Of a stretch of 39,769 bases of DNA, positions 1-31,109 are shown one piece after another. Position 1 is the first letter of the stretch, and each line of letters opens with the position of its first letter. A model generated the notes under the pieces. It saw only the letters and a list, made by a program, of their open reading frames with translations. It was not told the origin of the DNA and did not search any database. A program made the position numbers and the translations under genes. This DNA is from a virus (taxonomy: Duplodnaviria > Heunggongvirae > Uroviricota > Caudoviricetes): the IMG/VR virus record IMGVR_UViG_2541047701_000005, positions 1 to 39,769 of that record; one strand, 5' to 3'.

Positions 1-2175
1 TCATTTCACCACCCAACCAGAATTCCAGCGACCTGATTCTTTGATGTAGAGTCTTCCATTTACGATATCTCGATACTCGCTTCCAGGTGTGGCTATTTGT
101 ACTCCTTCAGGATTTCCAGTGCCAGCAATTATACTGTAACTAACGTCTGTGGCTAAATTCCTAACAATGTTAGCAGGAGGGTAAACGTTATCTGCAACAA
201 TAATATTTGAGCAACTTGCTGTTACATCTACAAAAAACTCATTGCTTATCGAGTTGTGATAACAGTTGTTACTAATCACACCATTTTTAGCAGATGAATC
301 AATACCTATAACTGCGTCTCCAGTTATAGATTCAAATGAATTTGATGTCACAGTGAATCCGTGGCATTCGCAGTTAATATGGACGGCTCTTCTTCCGTTC
401 ATTGCTGTATTACCTACAATTGATATGTTTCTACTTAACAAAGTTCCTTTGTATTCGCCATCATCCTCAAATATATAGAATATCGCCTTAGTCGTATCAA
501 CTTTATTGTTGCTTGCAATCACATTAGCAATGTAATTCCCTCTAAGGAATATCCCATTACATGAATCGACTGTGTTTCCAGTGATGGAAACTCCGTCAAC
601 CCATCTCATATCAAGAATGGTGCCATCACAGGACTCAAAATTATTTCCTGATATCCTCCAGTCTCTGTGAAATATTCTACTACCTTTCAATCCGCTCTCA
701 ATAAATGTTGGTGTAAGGCATGATATCACAGAATTTCCAGTGCAATTTTTAAATGTATTATGATGTATACACACATCTCTTGATGTTTCCCGAAGAGTTG
801 TGCTTACTTTCCTCCCGGTAAATATTATTGCTGGATTAGTGAAGTTTATAAATGTGTTTGAACCAATGTCAACATTTTCCCACCTAGAAAAGCCACGAAT
901 GCCAGAATAAGAATTACCATCAAAAGTACAATGGTGGATTTTTATATCAATAACTGGCTGCGCTCCATCTGTTGAACCGTGATTCCCTACGCCAACAGCC
1001 CATGACGGTAGAGATTCTGACGGTCCAAAATAACAACCAGACACTTTAATGCTAGCGATATTATCATTGCTGGACAATGGTGTTTCAATCTGAATAGCAT
1101 CTGAAAAACGTCTGTTACCTGCCCAATCCATAAACCCCATAAAACGGCAGTTTTCAATACTAACATTTCTCACGCGAGACAAGTCTATAGCATGCGCCCC
1201 AGAAACATTAAGGAATGTGCAATCCCGAAATATAATCCCATTAGTAAAAACAAATTCAAATATACTGGCTTGGTTTTTGTATATATTGCCATTGTTATTA
1301 AAAACACCACCAAATACAGATATATTATTACCACATTCGACTTCAGATGTGTATATGCAAGCAAATGTATTTACACCTGTGTCTGAATTATCAAAAGCAC
1401 GAATAATAGTTGCACCTCGTAGATGTAAACTTGTGTTTGAGTATATCATTATTTTTTTTGTTATTTTTATAAGCCATTCACTACGAAAAGTTAAATTCAA
1501 ACATCCGTTTATCTTTGCGATATTTAAAGCATTCTGTAAGGCATCGCTATCGTCGCTTACACCATCACCTGTAACCCCAAACCATGACGGTGAAACCTCA
1601 TTCCCGTAAACCCTCTTCCACCTTCTACCGTTAAAACCTACAAGAATTGTTCCGTCATTATCTTCTGATGTCGTATCTGTTGGGTCAGCATAGAACACCC
1701 CATCACCGCCATCGAACAAATTATTTCTTCCATAACAGATTATTTTGTCATTTGTGCCATTATATGAACGTATGTCTGTATAATTACCACCTCCTAAATA
1801 CGATACCCCGTCAATCTGATTTAGTTTCTGCTGAAAAATGTCTGGATCATACTTCAGCACATTCGGAAAATAGAACTGCTGCGCACCATACGCATCATAA
1901 ACAGCCATAGAATGGCCTTGCACAGTTACGAACTTGGCAATCTGTCCGTTATATACCGGATATCCAGCAGCGTTAATGATGATTGGTTGCGAAACAGGAA
2001 CGTGAGAACCGTCTTCGTTCTCCACATAAACCTGAATCTGGTTTTCAGGATTTACCGGGTCAGTGTCAATTTTACCGATATAAATTTTGCCATTGGCTAC
2101 GGCTTTAAAAGAACGCGCCATAGTGAAGAGTTGCGAAGGCATACTCACTACAACATTGGCTGTAATGTCTGTCAT
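1..2175 (-). CDS. Tailspike protein: P22 gp9-type N-terminal capsid-binding domain fused to a divergent beta-helix receptor-binding domain
   Basis: 724-aa ORF. First ~110 aa ([11 protein letters not shown]...NVLKYDPD) closely match the P22 tailspike head-binding domain as I recall it; the rest is Asn/Gly/Cys-rich with repeats typical of right-handed beta-helix tailspikes. Located at the distal end of the virion operon. Confidence 0.85.
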
Positions 2176-2307
2176 TTAATTTGCTCCAGATACAAGGAAT
2201 CACCGCAGCGTGGCTACGGTTGGTATTTGTTGCATACCGAAACGGTACGATTGTTGATTTGTACAGTAGGTTTTACGATGCCATTCCACCCATTTGGTGA
2301 GGCATTG

Positions 2308-2565
2308 ATGATGTACAGCAAATACGATGAGGCGCAGTTCCACTTGAGGCTTACGCACGAGTTGCACGCTAAGATTAAGCAGCGTGCAAAAATGAATAAC
2401 AGGTCTATCAATTCCGAAATTGTGGCTACGATGGAAGAATCACTCTCCAAACCATCACCTGTAAGCGGGTATCGTGATGAAGAAGAGAGATTGGCCTCAT
2501 TAATCTCGGAGCGAGTAAAAGAAGTTGCGGCTGATATCCTTAGAAAAGAAAAAACCCGCGATTAA
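2308..2565 (+). CDS. mnt: Mnt-like ribbon-helix-helix repressor (85 aa)
   Basis: Internal ATG of listed ORF 1912..2565, preceded by GGTGAGG RBS. NNRSINSEIVATMEESLSKPSPVSGYRDEEERLA resembles P22 Mnt (NGRSMNSELL...SKPSPVTGYRNDAERLA). The upstream part of the listed ORF is antisense to the tailspike gene and not coding. Confidence 0.7.
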   Translation: MMYSKYDEAQFHLRLTHELHAKIKQRAKMNNRSINSEIVATMEESLSKPSPVSGYRDEEERLASLISERVKEVAADILRKEKTRD

Positions 2566-2573
2566 GCGGGTTT
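2530..2573 (-). terminator. Intrinsic terminator of the antirepressor operon (8-bp stem AAACCCGC/GCGGGTTT, loop GATTAA, U-tract on minus strand)
   Basis: Perfect inverted repeat at 2552-2573; on the minus strand it is followed by TTTTTTCTTTTCT. It overlaps the 3' end of the convergent mnt-like gene. Confidence 0.6.
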
Positions 2574-2579
2574 AGTTGG

Positions 2580-2801
2580 TTAGTTATCAAAAAGTCCGTA
2601 CGTTTCTTCTTCTTCAGGTGTAAGGGGAAGAATCTCTACTCTATCTATAGATACCTTTTCAATGTACCCATGAGGTCTACTTAAAATTAAAGCTCTCTCA
2701 TGCCACAGAACTCCAAGAATGTGATACCTTCCAGCATCGCCTTTTACCCTGGCTCTTCCTTTGATTCTTGGCGGCATAATGCCATATTTTTTCTTTGCCA
2801 T
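2580..2801 (-). CDS. Hypothetical protein (73 aa), last gene of antirepressor operon
   Basis: ATG start overlaps the stop of the upstream Ant gene (TAATG coupling). No recognisable motif. Confidence 0.5.
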   Translation of the reverse strand: MAKKKYGIMPPRIKGRARVKGDAGRYHILGVLWHERALILSRPHGYIEKVSIDRVEILPLTPEEEETYGLFDN

Positions 2802-3526
2802 TATGCAACATTACTCCCATGAATCAGGTGTTGTAGTGCTTTAACACCTTCCTCATTGTAGCGGAACGCTTCCACCTGTTTGCTGGAATGCGCAGATTTA
2901 TCCAGGAAGAACTTCCCGTACTGCTCAGTTTTGAGGTTGTTTGCGTTAGCAATGCGACCAATCTTGTTGGCCGTTACTCCAAGCTGCTCTGCAACCTCCC
3001 CTGCTGAGTAGTAATGCTCTTCTATTGCCGGAAGAGGTATTGCATTAAAACCAACGAGCGGGTTGATTATACTTGCTGCCGCTGTCTGCTTTGCCTCCGG
3101 CGCAAGATTTGGCATCAGATCGAACAGATTGGTAACAGCTTCAACCGTCATTTTCAATGTTCGCGCTTGACGATACTCAACAAGTCCACTCGCTGATTTA
3201 CCGCTTTTAATGTGCGCTTCCTGCATACTTTCAAGTTTGTCTACAAGTGTTCGGCGAACTGCTTTAGATTCGCGAGCAGCAACACGAAGCGCCTGCTTGA
3301 TAGTCATGGAGATAACATCAATGTCAGCCCCGTTTTTCCGACCTACACTTTTTGTGTAGGTCTCGCCTTCCAATTCATCCTCAATTTTCTCGATGAATTT
3401 GTTGTTACGTACTGATGGCTCTCCACATAACTTGCGAGCTTCATTAACCATCATCAGAAGACTTTGGCTGTCAATGGTTTTATCCGTGACAACGGATCCG
3501 ATGTTTGCTACATTCTTAAAAGTCAT
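2801..3526 (-). CDS. ant: Antirepressor Ant (KilAC/AntB-type C-terminal domain), 241 aa
   Basis: Start chosen at internal ATG 3526 (MTFKNVANIG...) with AAGGAA RBS. C-terminal region YSAGEVAEQLGVTANKIGRIANANNL...FRYNEEGV is typical of phage antirepressor C-terminal domains. Confidence 0.6.
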   Translation of the reverse strand: MTFKNVANIGSVVTDKTIDSQSLLMMVNEARKLCGEPSVRNNKFIEKIEDELEGETYTKSVGRKNGADIDVISMTIKQALRVAARESKAVRRTLVDKLESMQEAHIKSGKSASGLVEYRQARTLKMTVEAVTNLFDLMPNLAPEAKQTAAASIINPLVGFNAIPLPAIEEHYYSAGEVAEQLGVTANKIGRIANANNLKTEQYGKFFLDKSAHSSKQVEAFRYNEEGVKALQHLIHGSNVA

Positions 3527-3594
3527 TAGGCATTCCTTATGTGGTAGTAAGGGTGTGACATAGGCCGCCAGCAGCACACTGGCGGTTTTCTTTT
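3521..3594 (+). ncRNA. Candidate sar-like antisense RNA covering the ant RBS and start codon
   Basis: Plus-strand promoter-like GTGACA (3486-3491), 17-nt spacer, TGcTACATT extended -10 (3506-3514). Plus-strand intrinsic terminator CCGCCAG-CAGCACA-CTGGCGG (3565-3585) followed by TTTTCTTTT. Predicted ~70-75 nt transcript antisense to the ant translation initiation region, analogous to P22 sar. Confidence 0.35.
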
Positions 3595-3613
3595 GCGCCG
3601 TCCTGTGCACCAA

Positions 3614-4240
3614 TCAATGAATCCATTCCTCGCCGCGAAGTTTTGCCAGCATTGGCTGAGCGTTCTTTACGACAAAATTGTTGGTATCAAGATTCTTCAT
3701 TTCACGAAGAAGTGATTTCTTGGTTTCTTCTGACATGTAGCGAGTCTCATATGCAATATCGTAAATCCTTCCTGAAAGCTCAGAACCAATTTGCTTCATT
3801 CCTGGGTAGATGTGTTTGCACATTTGTTGACTCTTCTCCATCCACAATTGTAAGTAGCAGAGATTAACCAGTTCTTCGTCAGTAAACTGTTTTGCAATCG
3901 GTGAGCATTCTGCCTGCCGATCCAAAATATCCAGCACCCAGCGGCGGAACTCTTTGGCTACCGGAGTGCGAGCAAACATCGCGATTAGGTGGGCACCGCG
4001 TAGTGAGAAAACTCGCACTTTTTTGCGATAATTTCCTGAGGTACTCACTTCGAGTACCTGAGTCATTCCGGCGCTAAACTCATCGCTATACTTGTTATAA
4101 ATCATTGTTACTGCACGACTATTTGCGTATTTAAGTGCAGATGCAATATTAGATGATGTAAACCAAACACCATGCATATCACGGGTGGGCACCAACTCAA
4201 CTCCGTGGAAGTTGTAATCTGATTTTGCTACAATATTCAT
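3614..4240 (-). CDS. Bro-N domain protein (antirepressor N-terminal-type), 208 aa
   Basis: Start at internal ATG 4240 (MNIVAKSDYNFHG...) with AGGAAA RBS. Motifs HGVWFTSSNIASALKY...FRRWVLDIL are typical of Bro-N/AntA domains. Same frame as the downstream Ant ORF, separated by one TGA and 87 nt. Confidence 0.6.
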   Translation of the reverse strand: MNIVAKSDYNFHGVELVPTRDMHGVWFTSSNIASALKYANSRAVTMIYNKYSDEFSAGMTQVLEVSTSGNYRKKVRVFSLRGAHLIAMFARTPVAKEFRRWVLDILDRQAECSPIAKQFTDEELVNLCYLQLWMEKSQQMCKHIYPGMKQIGSELSGRIYDIAYETRYMSEETKKSLLREMKNLDTNNFVVKNAQPMLAKLRGEEWIH

Positions 4241-4313
4241 GTTAGTTTCCTTGCATACGGTTACTGACATAGAGGCCCGGTTTGTGTTCGCGCACTGCCG
4301 GGCTTCACTATTT

Positions 4314-4487
4314 TTATTGGATGACAACATCGCCCTTTGCCTCAAGTTTCATCAATAACTCCATTCGATAAGCTATCTCTGCCTGAATTGACCTATGGCA
4401 TCTTTTTGCTGATTCGCGGATATGTGAATCAACCTTTTCTGTAAAACGAACCTGACGCGGCTTGATGGAAGATATCTTTTCAGTCAT
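4314..4487 (-). CDS. arc: Arc-like ribbon-helix-helix repressor (57 aa), first gene of antirepressor operon
   Basis: Not in ORF track (<60 aa). ATG at 4487 with AGGAG RBS 7 nt upstream. Translation MTEKISSIKPRQVRFTEKVDSHIRESAKRCHRSIQAEIAYRMELLMKLEAKGDVVIQ has a beta-strand then two helices like Arc/MetJ family proteins. Confidence 0.55.
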   Translation of the reverse strand: MTEKISSIKPRQVRFTEKVDSHIRESAKRCHRSIQAEIAYRMELLMKLEAKGDVVIQ

Positions 4488-4586
4488 TATGCACTCCTGT
4501 TTTTAAAAAACTCATAATCTCACTTTTTGTAGTTTGATTATTCACTCACACTCACTATGAGTCAATGAATTTTTTATGGTGAACTA
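4488..4586. promoter_or_regulatory. Divergent promoter/operator region (Pant-like leftward; promoter of CI-like paralog rightward)
   Basis: 99-bp AT-rich intergenic region between divergent genes. Contains repeated CTCACT/ACTCA motifs and the inverted repeat ACTCA-cta-TGAGT. Confidence 0.35.
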
Positions 4587-5228
4587 ATGAATTTTGACGA
4601 TCAATTCCCATCAAGAGTATCTCTGGCAAGACAGTCCAGGGGTATGACGCAGGCGCAGTTGTCGAAATTAGCTGGTGTTGTTCAACGTCAAATAGCTGCA
4701 TACGAGGGTGGTGAGGCTAAACCACGGCTTCGGGTATTGCAGGCATTAGCCAACGCATTAGGTACTACGGCTGAGTGGTTAGCTCTAGGTGAAGGTCAGG
4801 GTCCGGGAACAAAAAACGTCATGCCTGACGTTCTGGTAAAGCAAATACCAATCCTCAAACTAGATGAAGTTATGCATTACCTAAACACAGGTGAACATTC
4901 ATCGTCTAGATTTCATCCAGCAATATACAATGTTGGTGACTCTGCATTTGCATTGACTATTGAAGGTGAAGCTATGACTACAAGTTCAGGTATTAGTTTT
5001 CCCAGAGGATCGGTTGTCACGTTCAGCCCTCTAGTAAAAGCTAAAAGCAAAGATTATGTAATAGCATCATTGGATAAAGAGCAAATATTGAGCTTCAAAC
5101 AGGTTTACATTGGTGAAATAGAGACAAACCTAGTATCCCTAAACCCAATGTATCCTAATATTCTTGTTAGAAATGAAGATGTTAGTATTTTGGCAACCGC
5201 AGTTTACCTTGAAATCCCGTTGCTTTGA
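4587..5228 (+). CDS. CI-like repressor paralog: HTH (XRE-type) N-terminal domain plus lambda-CI-like C-terminal (S24-type) domain lacking the catalytic Ser
   Basis: 213 aa. N-terminus RGMTQAQLSKLAGVVQRQIAAYEGG is an HTH. C-terminal DSAFALTIEGEAMTTSSGISFPRG...SFKQV...LNPMYPNIL aligns by eye with lambda [28 protein letters not shown]...FTFKKL...LNPQYPMIP; the Ser149 position is Ala and there is no Ala-Gly cleavage site in the linker. Confidence 0.6.
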   Translation: MNFDDQFPSRVSLARQSRGMTQAQLSKLAGVVQRQIAAYEGGEAKPRLRVLQALANALGTTAEWLALGEGQGPGTKNVMPDVLVKQIPILKLDEVMHYLNTGEHSSSRFHPAIYNVGDSAFALTIEGEAMTTSSGISFPRGSVVTFSPLVKAKSKDYVIASLDKEQILSFKQVYIGEIETNLVSLNPMYPNILVRNEDVSILATAVYLEIPLL

Positions 5229-5288
5229 TATCCTTTAGGAAGCAACACATTATCATCTGGTATCCTGCACAAAACTAAGGAGGTTGGT

Positions 5289-5678
5289 GTGAGGCAATTT
5301 CTTGCTGCTATGTTCTTATTCATATCTTTTGGGGCTACAGCAGAGTGCTGGGTAGTTGGAGATATGCGCGGAATAAGCTATTCAGAACGAAATAATTTCC
5401 AACCAGAAGAAGATGGTTTTAGTGGAACATTCATCATTAAGACAAGCGGTGAAGATGCCAGCATCACATATTCTGGGGCAGATGCGGGCGGCATGGTTTA
5501 CAAAGCATTGTCTAAAAACTCCATCATAGGAATCGGCGCAAATGGCGAAACTCAACGCGTTATCGACTCATGGGTAATACATCCTACTGGAACAGTTTTA
5601 ATGTCAAAAACCATTTCCGGTTATGGAAATATGGATTCAACCAAAGCTTTTGTTGGAAAAGTAAAAAGAAAATGTTAA
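5289..5678 (+). CDS. Secreted/periplasmic protein of unknown function (129 aa, N-terminal signal peptide)
   Basis: GTG start with AAGGAGG RBS. N-terminal MRQFLAAMFLFISFGATA is a signal peptide. Co-oriented with and 60 nt downstream of the CI-like paralog. Confidence 0.5.
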   Translation: MRQFLAAMFLFISFGATAECWVVGDMRGISYSERNNFQPEEDGFSGTFIIKTSGEDASITYSGADAGGMVYKALSKNSIIGIGANGETQRVIDSWVIHPTGTVLMSKTISGYGNMDSTKAFVGKVKRKC

Positions 5679-5702
5679 CGATTGAATCCAATTCCCCATA
5701 CG

Positions 5703-7532
5703 TTACTGCTGTGTTGCCTCAGTAGCAAACAGCGGTCTGATGGCATTCGCAGCATTATTCAGCGCTCTTTCATAAGCTGGCGTTCCAGCTTTAGTGTTTG
5801 CCAGACGTAAGAGCGCATTCCTTGTTGCTTTGGACTCATACAGGCGCATCATTGCACCGAAACCAGATTCAAGCGCCAGTGTTGCCCCAAGAGTCGCAGT
5901 TGCGCCAATCGTCCTTATCCTGTTAGCTTGCGATTGCCCCGTCTGAGTTACTACATTTGCGGTGTCTGACCTTGCTGTTTGCTGTAGAACTTCATGAAGA
6001 GCATCAAGCTCTTTCATGTGTCTCCCACTGAATATCGTGTTATAGATCTGACCGTCAGATTGCGACTTCAACTTATTTAACTCGGTAAGAAATTTTGTTG
6101 GCGAGTCTCCTGCTTTTTCTGCAATCTTGCTGATATAAGCAGCACGCATAGCGTTCTTTCCATCTTCACTAAGAGCAGGCCATATCCTCTTAATATCTGA
6201 TGGTTTTCTGCTGAATACAACGCTGTTTATTAGCTCTGGAGTAAACTCTTTTTTAGCTTTGTTGAGATTATTCGCAATCCTTTTATTGAGAACCTTATTG
6301 AAGACGTTGGAGTAGTCAGAGTTTGCTTTGACGTATCTGGCGGCCTCTCCAGCCCCCAAATACCGCGCTGCGTTATTCCTCAAATCTGCCCCCATTGCCC
6401 TCTCCACGGCATCAGTTGCGGCTTTCGCGCTATTAGGAAAAACCATGGCATCTCCCTGAATGCTTTCCCTCAAGGCTGACCGCAACTCTCTCAATAGACC
6501 AAAATCTATATCTGGTTTAGCAAGTTCTTCTCGCAAATCGGATAACCCGCGAATCAAATCCTTATTTGCCACTTTCCCAAGCCTGTTAGCTCTGGTAAGT
6601 ACGTTGTCGATAACCTTAATAGATTTTGATGTGTCAACTGGCGTGTCTCCCATTTTGGTTGTAATGTCTTCAATAACGCTTCCGGCCGACTCCTTCCTTG
6701 ACTTCAGAGAACCATACAGATCGTCAACAACAACTGATGGGCTGTATTCACCATATTTCTCAAGCTGTTTTTTAACTAGCTGACTTCTTTTTGCATACTG
6801 CTCAGCTCGCTTTGAGCCTGTTCCCAGCAAAGCCCCCTCAGCATCCTGAGTAAGACCACGAGTGAAAGCATTTTTCGGCGGGATAACATCAGATGTCATT
6901 GGTGTCACGCCCATCGATTCTGATGTGGCAATTTTCTTCGCCACTTCTGGCGCAATATCACCTTTTATAGCCGTTATTCCACGCCCTATTCCCTTTGCTG
7001 CTGCGGAAAGAACACCCTGAGCGGCAAGGTTAACTCCGGCATTTTTAGCTGCATTTTGTGCGAAATCACCTTTCTGATTTGCGGCCTCTGCCAGTGATCC
7101 AATAGCCATGCTTCCTGCCGTTCCAACTCCTGGAACTAAATACCCGCCAATTGTTTCTCCAGCTTGAGCGTAGGGGTCTGTCGGTCGATCGACTGGACGA
7201 TAGACATCATCCAAAACCTTGGGGCCACCAAGCCCCTGACTGATTGCATTAATCAGACTTGCGCCACCCTGCAATACGTCAAATGGTATGTTTACCAGAC
7301 CACGACCAGCCTGTTCTGCAATTTGCCCTGCACTTTGACCACCAGTGAGCCAATCGCCAGCTTGTTGCATCAATGATGGTTCTTCCCGTGTTGGTGCATT
7401 ATTGGCCTGATTAACTGTTTGTTGCTGAACAGCCTGACCAGCAAAATACTCATCAATGGCGGTGCCAATATCTTCCGTGCTCGTACCATCAGGGAAGGTA
7501 AATGTCTTACCGTTTGCAGTTACTTTCATCAT
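5703..7532 (-). CDS. Ejection (injection) protein, P22 gp16-like
   Basis: 609 aa, the same length as P22 gp16, and in the conserved position in the P22-like gene order (7-20-16). Confidence 0.8.
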
Positions 7533-24249: not shown

Positions 24250-24279
24250 ATTATGGCTAAATGGCTAATTGCATGTCAA
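24250..24279 (-). promoter_or_regulatory. Late promoter pR' (-35 TTGACA, 18-nt spacer, -10 CATAAT) overlapping the Q stop codon
   Basis: Consensus -35 hexamer at 24274-24279 and -10 at 24250-24255 on the minus strand, immediately at the 3' end of Q. Confidence 0.55.
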
Positions 24280-24775
24280 GGCTTTTAACAGCAACATGCT
24301 TAACTTTCTCAACACGTTTACGCATTTTGAAAGCATTTTGCATTGGTTGGTACAAAACAAATAACGACGCTTTCAGGATGTCGTCAATTTCGTTTCTACA
24401 GGTTGCCAGTGAAGGTTTTCTCCATCCCTCGCCACCACGTCCACACATCTTGCGTGGCTTTGCAGTCGCGTGATAGTAGGATGCAATTGCTCGCTTAGAT
24501 GAACCATGAGCGTAGTAGCTGAGGAGGATGCCAAAGGCTTTCTTGTCAATGTACATGACGGAATCGACGACCTGAGAAATCAACATTCCATCATCATCAT
24601 TACACATTGGCCTTGTCATAACTCTTCCCGGCTCTACGCTCTCCATGAACTTCGCTATTACGCTGCTCATGCGCTTTTCCAGACGACCTGAATAAACCCA
24701 TGCGCCCCACAGCTCAAGCCAGCCATTCAGCCAATCGTGCTGTTCTTTGGTGAGGTTTAGCTCTCTTATGCTCAT
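24257..24775 (-). CDS. Q: Late-gene antiterminator Q (phage 21/82-type family)
   Basis: 172 aa; ELWGAWVYSGR...TRPMCNDDDGMLISQVVDSV...YYAHGSSKRAIASYY resembles Q proteins of 21/82-type lambdoid phages; directly upstream of pR' and the lysis cassette. Confidence 0.75.
   Translation of the reverse strand: MSIRELNLTKEQHDWLNGWLELWGAWVYSGRLEKRMSSVIAKFMESVEPGRVMTRPMCNDDDGMLISQVVDSVMYIDKKAFGILLSYYAHGSSKRAIASYYHATAKPRKMCGRGGEGWRKPSLATCRNEIDDILKASLFVLYQPMQNAFKMRKRVEKVKHVAVKSLDMQLAI

Positions 24776-30392: not shown

Positions 30393-31109
<717 letters not shown>

Follow-up and report, generated by a model that had tools for sequence, protein, structure and literature searches.

An ant moron of two modules in a P22-like Escherichia coli prophage: a likely antirepressor switch under a CI-fold repressor, next to an orphan Mnt-like cassette

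The stretch of DNA considered here, referred to as the window, is the whole 39,769 nucleotides of the viral record IMGVR_UViG_2541047701_000005, and the region in question is the interval between its gene 16 and tailspike homologues, which carries a Mnt-like repressor gene, an antirepressor operon and a CI-like repressor gene. The window is a P22-like (Lederbergvirus) prophage of Escherichia coli that runs in the opposite orientation to the standard P22 map, with the late genes, a homologue of the Q-type antiterminator (24257-24775) and the tailspike all on its minus strand, an immC repressor of the lambda CI type with an intact S24 domain at 30396-31109, and the integrase at its right end. 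The gene 16 homologue lies at 5703-7532 (phrog_770, 1.4e-260), and the region under study falls between it and the tailspike within the late operon, as immI does in P22. This interval is a classic hot spot of variation among P22-like phages, of which only the P22 version has been studied. It has been named the 'ant moron', with ten types described among sixteen genomes, some of which hold mnt alone in a role that was not known (Villafane et al. 2008, PMC2629481). In the window this published, highly variable interval is a mosaic of two modules that assort independently of each other. The open reading frames, their order and their strands are as a first, sequence-only reading of the region had given them, and the features are as follows.

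1-2175, minus strand: tailspike, with the P22-type N-terminal head-binding domain (Pfam Head_binding, 2.4e-66).
2202-2220, minus strand: the hairpin called 'boundary sequence', within the tailspike leader and immediately 5' of the tailspike Shine-Dalgarno (SD) sequence (2185-2188).
2234-2248: candidate operator of the Mnt-like protein, a 15-bp palindrome, GTACCGTTTCGGTAT, read on the minus strand.
2251-2279, plus strand: weak candidate promoter of the Mnt-like gene, TTGTTG-17-TACGAT, with 7 of 12 consensus matches.
2308-2565, plus strand: Mnt-like ribbon-helix-helix (RHH) repressor (Pfam Arc, 4e-15; 47% identical to P22 Mnt over residues 7-79).
2552-2573: bidirectional intrinsic terminator, common to the Mnt-like gene and the antirepressor operon.
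2580-2801, minus strand: orf73, the last gene of the operon (phrog_4977, 5.5e-54, without annotated function).
2801-3526, minus strand: 'Ant2', a conserved phage protein of 241 aa that has a winged helix-turn-helix (HTH) of the MerR/Xis type at its C-terminus.
3486-3598, plus strand: candidate second antisense RNA, 'sar2', with the promoter GTGACA-17-TGcTACATT (3486-3514) and a predicted start near 3521.
3614-4240, minus strand: Ant1 (Bro-N, 2.2e-10; P22_AR_C, 4.6e-14; phrog_245, anti-repressor Ant, 2e-53).
4206-4316, plus strand: sar-like antisense RNA, with an extended -10 TGcTACAAT (4226-4234) and a predicted RNA from 4241 to about 4316.
4314-4487, minus strand: Arc-like protein of 57 aa, the first gene of the operon (phrog_10182).
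4510-4516 and 4555-4561: candidate inverted half-sites, ACTCATA and TATGAGT, forming an inverted repeat.
4537-4565, minus strand: promoter of the antirepressor operon, TTGACT-17-AATAAT, with 10 of 12 consensus matches, the best in the region.
4550-4562: candidate operator, a perfect 13-bp palindrome, ACTCACTATGAGT, between the -35 and -10 elements and unique in the window.
4587-5228, plus strand: repressor of the CI/LexA fold (HTH_3, 9.3e-13; Peptidase_S24, 1.3e-12), divergent from the antirepressor operon.
5289-5678, plus strand: orf129, for context, 3' of the CI-like gene and in the same orientation (phrog_2651, 3.8e-60, function unknown).

The CI-like protein has both the N-terminal HTH and the C-terminal S24 fold that are found together in the self-cleaving LexA and CI repressors. 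Self-cleavage in these proteins works by a Ser-Lys mechanism. The lysine is retained in the CI-like protein (FKQ), but the serine nucleophile has become alanine, the motif reading GEAM where the immC repressor of the window has GNSM and distant homologues have GDSM, and there is no Ala-Gly at the position that aligns with QAG of the immC repressor. The loss of the serine would be recent, as a homologue that is 81% identical still has it. The CI-like repressor is therefore probably unable to cleave itself and, with neither the nucleophile nor the cleavage site, should be blind to RecA and the SOS response.

The position of this gene is one that the sequence-only reading had described correctly, as the mnt position next to the antirepressor promoter taken by a CI-like protein. 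In relatives whose CI-like proteins are as little as 41% identical, the CI-like gene invariably diverges from the 57-aa RHH gene and ant1 with about 99 bp between them, and the set of CI-like, 57-aa RHH and Bro-N antirepressor genes is also found on contigs without any of the P22-like markers used. The operon of ant1 and ant2, with or without orf73, is headed by the CI-like and Arc-like pair in 19 of 80 loci and by a P22-type Arc together with a second Mnt in 21 loci. As these two pairs alternate as heads of one and the same operon, the CI-like gene would fill the functional slot of Mnt.

Within the operon the earlier gene labels stood only in part. The Mnt-like label is borne out by the similarity to P22 Mnt, and the Arc-like label has moderate support, whereas the gene that was called a separate Bro-N gene is the Ant homologue and the one that was called ant is unrelated to P22 Ant. 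Ant1, the supposed Bro-N gene, carries the P22_AR_C domain, is 29% identical to P22 Ant over the C-terminus and comes directly after the sar-like element, and by domain content and position it is thus a true homologue of P22 Ant; its start is the ATG at 4240 and not the TTG at 4345. Ant2 finds no match in Pfam or NCBIfam and has no similarity to P22 Ant, with the only anti-repressor label on it coming from PHROG (phrog_1726). Its real start is taken to be the ATG at 3526, because its homologues are 241 aa long. In the siphovirus Salmonella phage SPN3UB (locus L248, 2184-4374) a cassette of Mnt-like, Arc-like and Ant genes is followed by a 262-aa 'transcriptional regulator' at the position of Ant2, and if this protein is a relative of Ant2 then the pairing of Ant1 and Ant2 moves between phage types. 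The start of orf73 overlaps the stop codon upstream of it (TAATG), and the gene is variable, being present in some relatives and missing from others. The operon then meets the terminator, which has a perfect 8-bp stem (AAACCCGC/GCGGGTTT) and a T-run on the minus strand.

The Arc-like protein is probably an RHH protein, a reading with moderate support from a profile comparison with Arc and Mnt by hhalign, which gave a match in register (72% probability, E 3.5e-5). The spacer between its gene and the CI-like gene is 99 bp and contains the antirepressor promoter, whose -35 block, GAGTCAATG, does not vary in any of the diverged relatives. The inverted half-sites flank the core of this promoter and their sequences vary between lineages. 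Two further candidates in this spacer were set aside: TTGATT-15-TATGAG as a promoter of the CI-like gene overlapping the ant promoter, which scoring did not support, and a LexA box at the ant promoter, as CTGTTTTTAAAAAACT does not match CTGT-N8-ACAG by inspection.

Between the Arc-like gene and ant1 lies a spacer that can be aligned with the arc-ant spacer of P22. The sar-like RNA predicted from it folds into a 5' stem-loop and, at 4272-4306, a terminator hairpin, which together reproduce the two hairpins of P22 sar (-33.3 kcal/mol, z -6.2). As in P22, the extended -10 lies within the first codons of ant1. This layout of promoter, 5' stem and terminator recurs in nine further, diverged loci, and 7 of the 12 pairs of the terminator have compensatory changes. 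The element would thus be a diverged relative of sar with predicted transcription, and is not a member that the Rfam model scores. A second antisense RNA is also predicted, over the start of ant2. Its RNA would be antisense to the Ant2 start codon and SD sequence, beginning immediately ahead of their complement, and would end at a GC-rich terminator hairpin (3564-3586) followed by a T-run, which terminates on the plus strand only. Five lineages, at 44-69% identity in Ant2, have retained the extended -10 (TACATT, TAAATT, TAAAGT, TATATT) together with the hairpin and the T-run, and two pairs of the stem show compensatory changes. In P22, sar blocks the synthesis of Ant from late read-through transcripts. 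The same need may be expected here, since late transcription can reach the tailspike only through the cassette and the terminator at 2552-2573.

The second module lies between the terminator and the tailspike. The similarity of the Mnt-like protein to P22 Mnt is not limited to the N-terminal RHH domain and includes the C-terminal half, which is responsible for tetramerisation. The conserved start of the gene is probably its second ATG, at 2311, as relatives do not have an ATG at the first position. The gene is intact in 81 of 81 relatives in IMG/VR, and its median ratio of nonsynonymous to synonymous substitution (dN/dS) is 0.11, falling to 0.03 in the N-terminal, DNA-binding half; one Citrobacter copy in the genome collection has a stop codon. 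The candidate operator occupies the position of the P22 mnt operator (Omnt) relative to mnt, aligns both with Omnt and with the palindrome AAGACCACCGTGGTCTT of phages L and SE1, and is conserved among relatives while its flanks diverge. It occurs once in the window. Across three classes the operator sequence co-varies with the DNA-recognising beta-strand of Mnt:

this window and close relatives: beta-strand QFHLRL, operator GTACC(G/A)TTT(C/A)GGTA.
phages L, SE1 and ST64T: beta-strand PQFNLRL, operator AAGACCAC(C/T)GTGGTCTT.
P22: beta-strand HFNFRM, operator AGGTCCACGGTGGACCT.

With all 81 copies from IMG/VR intact, a low dN/dS and an operator that follows the recognition strand, the Mnt-like gene is, by these measures, functional and not decaying. 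Its promoter may be the weak candidate at 2251-2279, the -10 block of which (ATCGTA on the other strand) is invariant in relatives, and the geometry of this candidate and the operator is that of the mnt promoter (Pmnt) and Omnt in P22.

Two further observations were made on mnt. A small hairpin at 2287-2299 on the plus strand overlaps the ribosome-binding site of the Mnt-like gene. Its two arms co-vary from lineage to lineage (CACC/GGTG in the window, CACTT/AAGTG in the type of phage L, CCAGT/ACTGG in the type of locus L098 and CACT/AGTG in P22), which suggests a conserved structure in the leader of the mnt RNA. In addition, Mnt genes are themselves mosaic (loci L021, L096 and L111-L117 compared with 2308-2565 of the window), the N-terminal halves of the three specificity classes being joined to varied C-terminal halves with a crossover near the conserved SKPSPV linker.

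That the two modules assort independently is seen from the 80 closest relatives of the Mnt-like gene in IMG/VR, which formed the sample for its context. The block of mnt, operator and boundary hairpin stands at the start of the tailspike in all 79 of those with the tailspike in view (79 of the 80), with an insertion in four: an HNH gene just inside the tailspike in three and a truncated ant in one (L039). Yet 27 of the 80 do not have any ant genes. The same pairing of mnt and tailspike is found in phages L, SE1, Sf101, IME10, VSe13, 720R6 and JEP4. Conversely, loci L014, L017 and L031 have the CI-like cassette but no Mnt gene, and the operons that are headed by a second Mnt co-occur with a Mnt on the tailspike side. 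The intergenic region by the tailspike (2176-2310) and the region of the ant promoter (4488-4586), which the sequence-only reading had proposed to search for shared operators, have no common k-mer of 7 or more, and neither contains the half-sites of the other.

The sequence-only reading also described the region as rearranged, with the Mnt-like gene displaced to the side of the tailspike, and this description did not survive the comparison. The order in P22 is mnt (leftward), Pmnt with the ant promoter (Pant) and Omnt, arc, sar, ant, terminator, boundary hairpin and gene 9; removing arc to ant from it gives the mnt, operator, boundary hairpin and tailspike of the window. Judged by gene order, then, the Mnt-like gene is in the ancestral position of P22 mnt and is not displaced. 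An intermediate exists in locus L021, where a P22-type Omnt, arc and ant lie between this mnt and the tailspike with the CI-like cassette on the far side, and where the C-terminal half of the mnt product is identical to that of the Mnt-like protein of the window. Among relatives the remnant of Pant decays while the operator, Pmnt and mnt persist.

Taken jointly, these findings make it likely, with some room for doubt, that the region consists of two modules. Module A (2580-5228) would be an immI-type antirepressor switch in which a repressor of the CI/LexA fold stands in the place of P22 Mnt, and Module B (2176-2573) an orphan Mnt cassette of a gene, a weak promoter and a 15-bp operator. When the phage enters a cell without the CI-like repressor, the strong promoter at 4537-4565 would fire and the Arc-like protein, Ant1, Ant2 and orf73 would be made, with Ant1 inactivating repressors of the CI/C2 type and the Arc-like protein feeding back on the antirepressor promoter. 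In the lysogen the CI-like protein would keep the operon off, as Mnt does in P22. It would not respond to RecA, so that induction by SOS would be left to the intact immC repressor. Once late transcription is antiterminated by Q, a route that the Q homologue at 24257-24775 supports, two short antisense RNAs, one for each ant ribosome-binding site, would block translation of the read-through transcript. The Mnt-like protein, for its part, would bind only its own operator and autoregulate without control of Module A. What the sequences show directly is the content of genes and domains, their conservation, the co-variation of the operator, the independent assortment of the modules and the purifying selection; binding, regulation and the two RNAs are all inferred.

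Several results do not favour this account of Module A. The co-variation between lineages at 4510-4562 is not clean enough to assign sites to the CI-like or to the Arc-like protein, and within the 99-bp spacer there is no sigma-70 match of at least 8 of 12 that could serve as a promoter of the CI-like gene. For the Arc-like protein, the matches to PDB profiles (pArc, CopG, Arc and AmrZ, E 0.03-0.4) are all to RHH proteins and all sub-threshold, its family members match the RHH families RHH_5, Arc and ParD_like of Pfam below the cut-off, and a single-sequence AlphaFold2 model gave one long helix that is uninformative. The Rfam model of sar (RF00262) has no match on 4190-4345 at E up to 10, where P22 scores 97.8 bits, and an Rfam scan of the window found no sar, with a weak and insignificant SymR as the sole match. 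As for sar2, its promoter sits in coding sequence, so that the conservation may partly reflect the protein, and the z of the overall fold is only -2.0.

What Module B does is harder to say. P22 Mnt is known to act in trans on superinfecting genomes. It is possible, and tentatively preferred here, that the orphan Mnt is an 'immunity-only' repressor that would work in trans, shutting off the antirepressor promoter of incoming relatives with a matching operator. This role is favoured because the operator, Pmnt and mnt persist while Pant decays, and because a target of this kind does exist for another operator class: in a 70-kb contig (L282, 740-1150) an operator of the phage L type lies at an intact Pant-like promoter, TTGACA-17-TATCTT, which is followed by arc and ant. 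This is the only case found of an operator of an orphan class at a real antirepressor operon, and the trans-acting role has to be weighed against the scarcity of targets. For the window class, no operator was found at any antirepressor promoter, either among the IMG/VR matches listed or in the genome collection. The matches to the 15-mer of the window operator among those listed from IMG/VR are mostly due to chance, and the 15 in a P22-like context all have the same arrangement as the window; the genome collection holds 5 loci with a window-class operator, none with arc and ant adjoining it. In the class of phage L the ratio of orphan Mnt genes to possible targets is about 35:1, which is hard to reconcile with selection for a purely trans role.

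The trans-acting immunity role is placed slightly ahead of a second explanation, which is doubtful but has a number of points in its favour, that the Mnt-like protein controls transcription into the tailspike, either by repressing a promoter at or near the operator, which would be active early in infection and kept silent in the lysogen, or by forming a roadblock that throttles late read-through. The sequence-only reading had itself raised a tailspike promoter as a possible target, and the sole operator in the window does lie about 60-75 bp upstream of the tailspike ATG. Operator and tailspike go together in all 79 of the relatives in view and in 35 of the 36 loci of the phage L type in a P22-like context, and the Mnt-like gene is under strong purifying selection without another target in cis being visible. 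A weak candidate promoter, TCGTAA-17-AACAAT, would start transcripts within the operator, and an influence of Mnt and Arc on transcription that reads through into gene 9 has been a matter of speculation (Villafane et al., PMC2629481). The best promoter facing the tailspike, however, has 7 of 12 matches, which is no better than chance, and the positions homologous to Pant are degenerate across relatives, with -10 elements of TACAAA, TATATC or TGTATC, in which the critical last T is lost, and spacers of 13-17 nt. The stretch from the operator to the hairpin is not conserved, and adjacency to the tailspike is also explained by ancestry, being the P22 order without arc and ant. The more specific proposal, that the orphan Mnt and its operator are a selected device in which a repressor tetramer upstream of gene 9 gates transcription of the tailspike, is a shade more doubtful again. 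Were it to hold, the dosage of tailspike would be under repressor control in hundreds of P22-like phages, including L, ST64T and SE1.

It is very unlikely that the Mnt-like gene is a decaying and functionless remnant of a lost immI. The genome paper of phage L raised this for its orphan mnt, alongside the alternative that the gene may have gained another function (bioRxiv 10.1101/2020.10.05.325894), and the decay of the Pant remnant and the stop codon in the Citrobacter copy would agree with it. Against it stand the uniformly intact copies in IMG/VR with their low dN/dS, the conservation of the operator and the -10 block across lineages in which the flanks have diverged, and the co-variation of the operator with the recognition strand. 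Orphan Mnt genes do not look like debris in this light, being intact, under purifying selection and linked to a co-evolving operator that is always by the start of the tailspike, and the question of whether they are remnants, which the literature has left open, can now be put directly to experiment.

The least probable explanation, and one well behind the trans-acting role, is the two-layered control that the sequence-only reading had suggested. In this view the Mnt-like protein would act on the antirepressor operon alongside the CI-like protein, through the arc-proximal promoter or through convergent transcription. P22 Mnt is the natural repressor of ant, and the Mnt-like gene is convergent with the operon and has its terminator in common with it. 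Against this, no Mnt operator or half-site is found in 4488-4586, the operator is unique in the window, and the two regions have no 7-mer in common. Of the 80 closest relatives, 27 have the Mnt-like gene but no ant genes, other loci have the CI-like cassette but no Mnt-like gene, and where a second Mnt heads the operon, the one on the tailspike side is present too.

Module A is best understood by comparison with P22 immI, with which it has much in common: a location between gene 16 and the tailspike in the late operon, a small gene, probably for an RHH protein, that opens the operon, a homologous arc-ant spacer with a predicted two-hairpin antisense RNA and an extended -10 in the first ant codons, P22_AR_C in Ant, a divergent gene for the presumed maintenance repressor and a terminator before the tailspike. 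It differs in that this repressor is an HTH protein of the CI/LexA fold and not Mnt, that Ant1 is a protein of 208 aa with a Bro-N N-terminus where P22 Ant has 300 aa, and that Ant2, orf73 and the second candidate antisense RNA are additions. The antisense RNA of the window is given no score by the Rfam sar model, and a separate Mnt gene lies by the tailspike without arc and ant, its operator being absent from the ant promoter. If a phage-encoded repressor of the LexA fold that is blind to SOS has indeed replaced Mnt, the regulatory head of the ant operon would be swappable, and one sar-type RNA for each ant gene would turn the single known example of sar into a repeated design.

Module B, in turn, resembles the orphan-mnt morons of L, ST64T, ST104, SE1, Sf101 and IME10, in which mnt and the tailspike gene diverge, a palindromic operator and the boundary hairpin separate the two, and mnt has no arc and ant under its control. 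In the window, unlike these, the Mnt strand is QFHLRL and not PQFNLRL, the operator is GTACCGTTTCGGTAT and not AAGACCACCGTGGTCTT, and the slot beyond mnt is filled by a complete second antirepressor cassette.

Antirepressors under a repressor of the LexA/CI fold are already known from the Fels prophages, from Tum of coliphage 186 and from phage SPC32H, where, as predicted for Module A, the antirepressor operon is held off by a protein of the LexA fold. Those of the Gifsy prophages are repressed by LexA (PMC7067206). The difference is that the host LexA is cleaved in the SOS response, which makes the antirepressor the signal for induction, whereas the repressor of the window is encoded by the phage and has neither the nucleophile nor the cleavage site. 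A further likeness is to STnc6030, an antisense RNA expressed in the lysogen from the junction of gene 16 and the tailspike in the P22-like phage BTP1, which confers superinfection immunity (Owen et al. 2020, PMC7067206). Going by its published description, it is like the predicted mnt transcript of the window a lysogen transcript in the mnt direction at the 5' end of the tailspike, but it is non-coding, longer than 700 nt and overlaps coding sequence, while the transcript of the window encodes a repressor and would overlap only the non-coding late leader.

The arrangement of the window is not confined to it, and the comparison with related prophages that the sequence-only reading had proposed found the same synteny repeatedly. 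Escherichia phage JEP4 is 98% identical over 77% of positions 2000-5800 of the window and has the same gene order annotated, 12 complete E. coli genomes cover at least 80% of these positions, and the arrangement recurs in about 25 IMG/VR contigs. It is thus genuine and common, a mosaic variant of a region that was already known, and not a new kind of system. No published description of this particular arrangement was found in the literature; Kapi1 and CUS-3 were considered as published equivalents and rejected, as both have different variants of the moron. In one E. coli genome that is 100% identical to the window over 2000-5800 (NZ_CP082094.1) the match is cut in two by an insertion of the IS100 type (IS21 family).

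The boundary hairpin in front of the tailspike is found upstream of P22 gene 9 too, in two copies (locus L004, near 4552 and 4660), and in about 100 records of P22-like phages, and nearly all phages of this kind have it; in CUS-3 it is annotated as bsq. Its stem is preserved through switches between G-C and G-U pairs, and this fits an RNA structure on the sense strand of the tailspike. In L048 (2816-3358), and also in L054 and L058, a gene for a 180-aa homing endonuclease of the HNH/AP2 type is inserted 4-5 codons inside the tailspike gene, which restarts with a new N-terminus after the insertion. Phage Kapi1 (locus L127, 5054-5554) likewise has an HNH endonuclease, in its case immediately 5' of the tailspike.

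On the other side of Module A, orf129 has an N-terminus that resembles a signal peptide (MRQFLAAMFLFISFGATAEC), and relatives have sieA-like genes in the same slot. Given these two observations, orf129 may be an exclusion or conversion gene that is expressed from the prophage.

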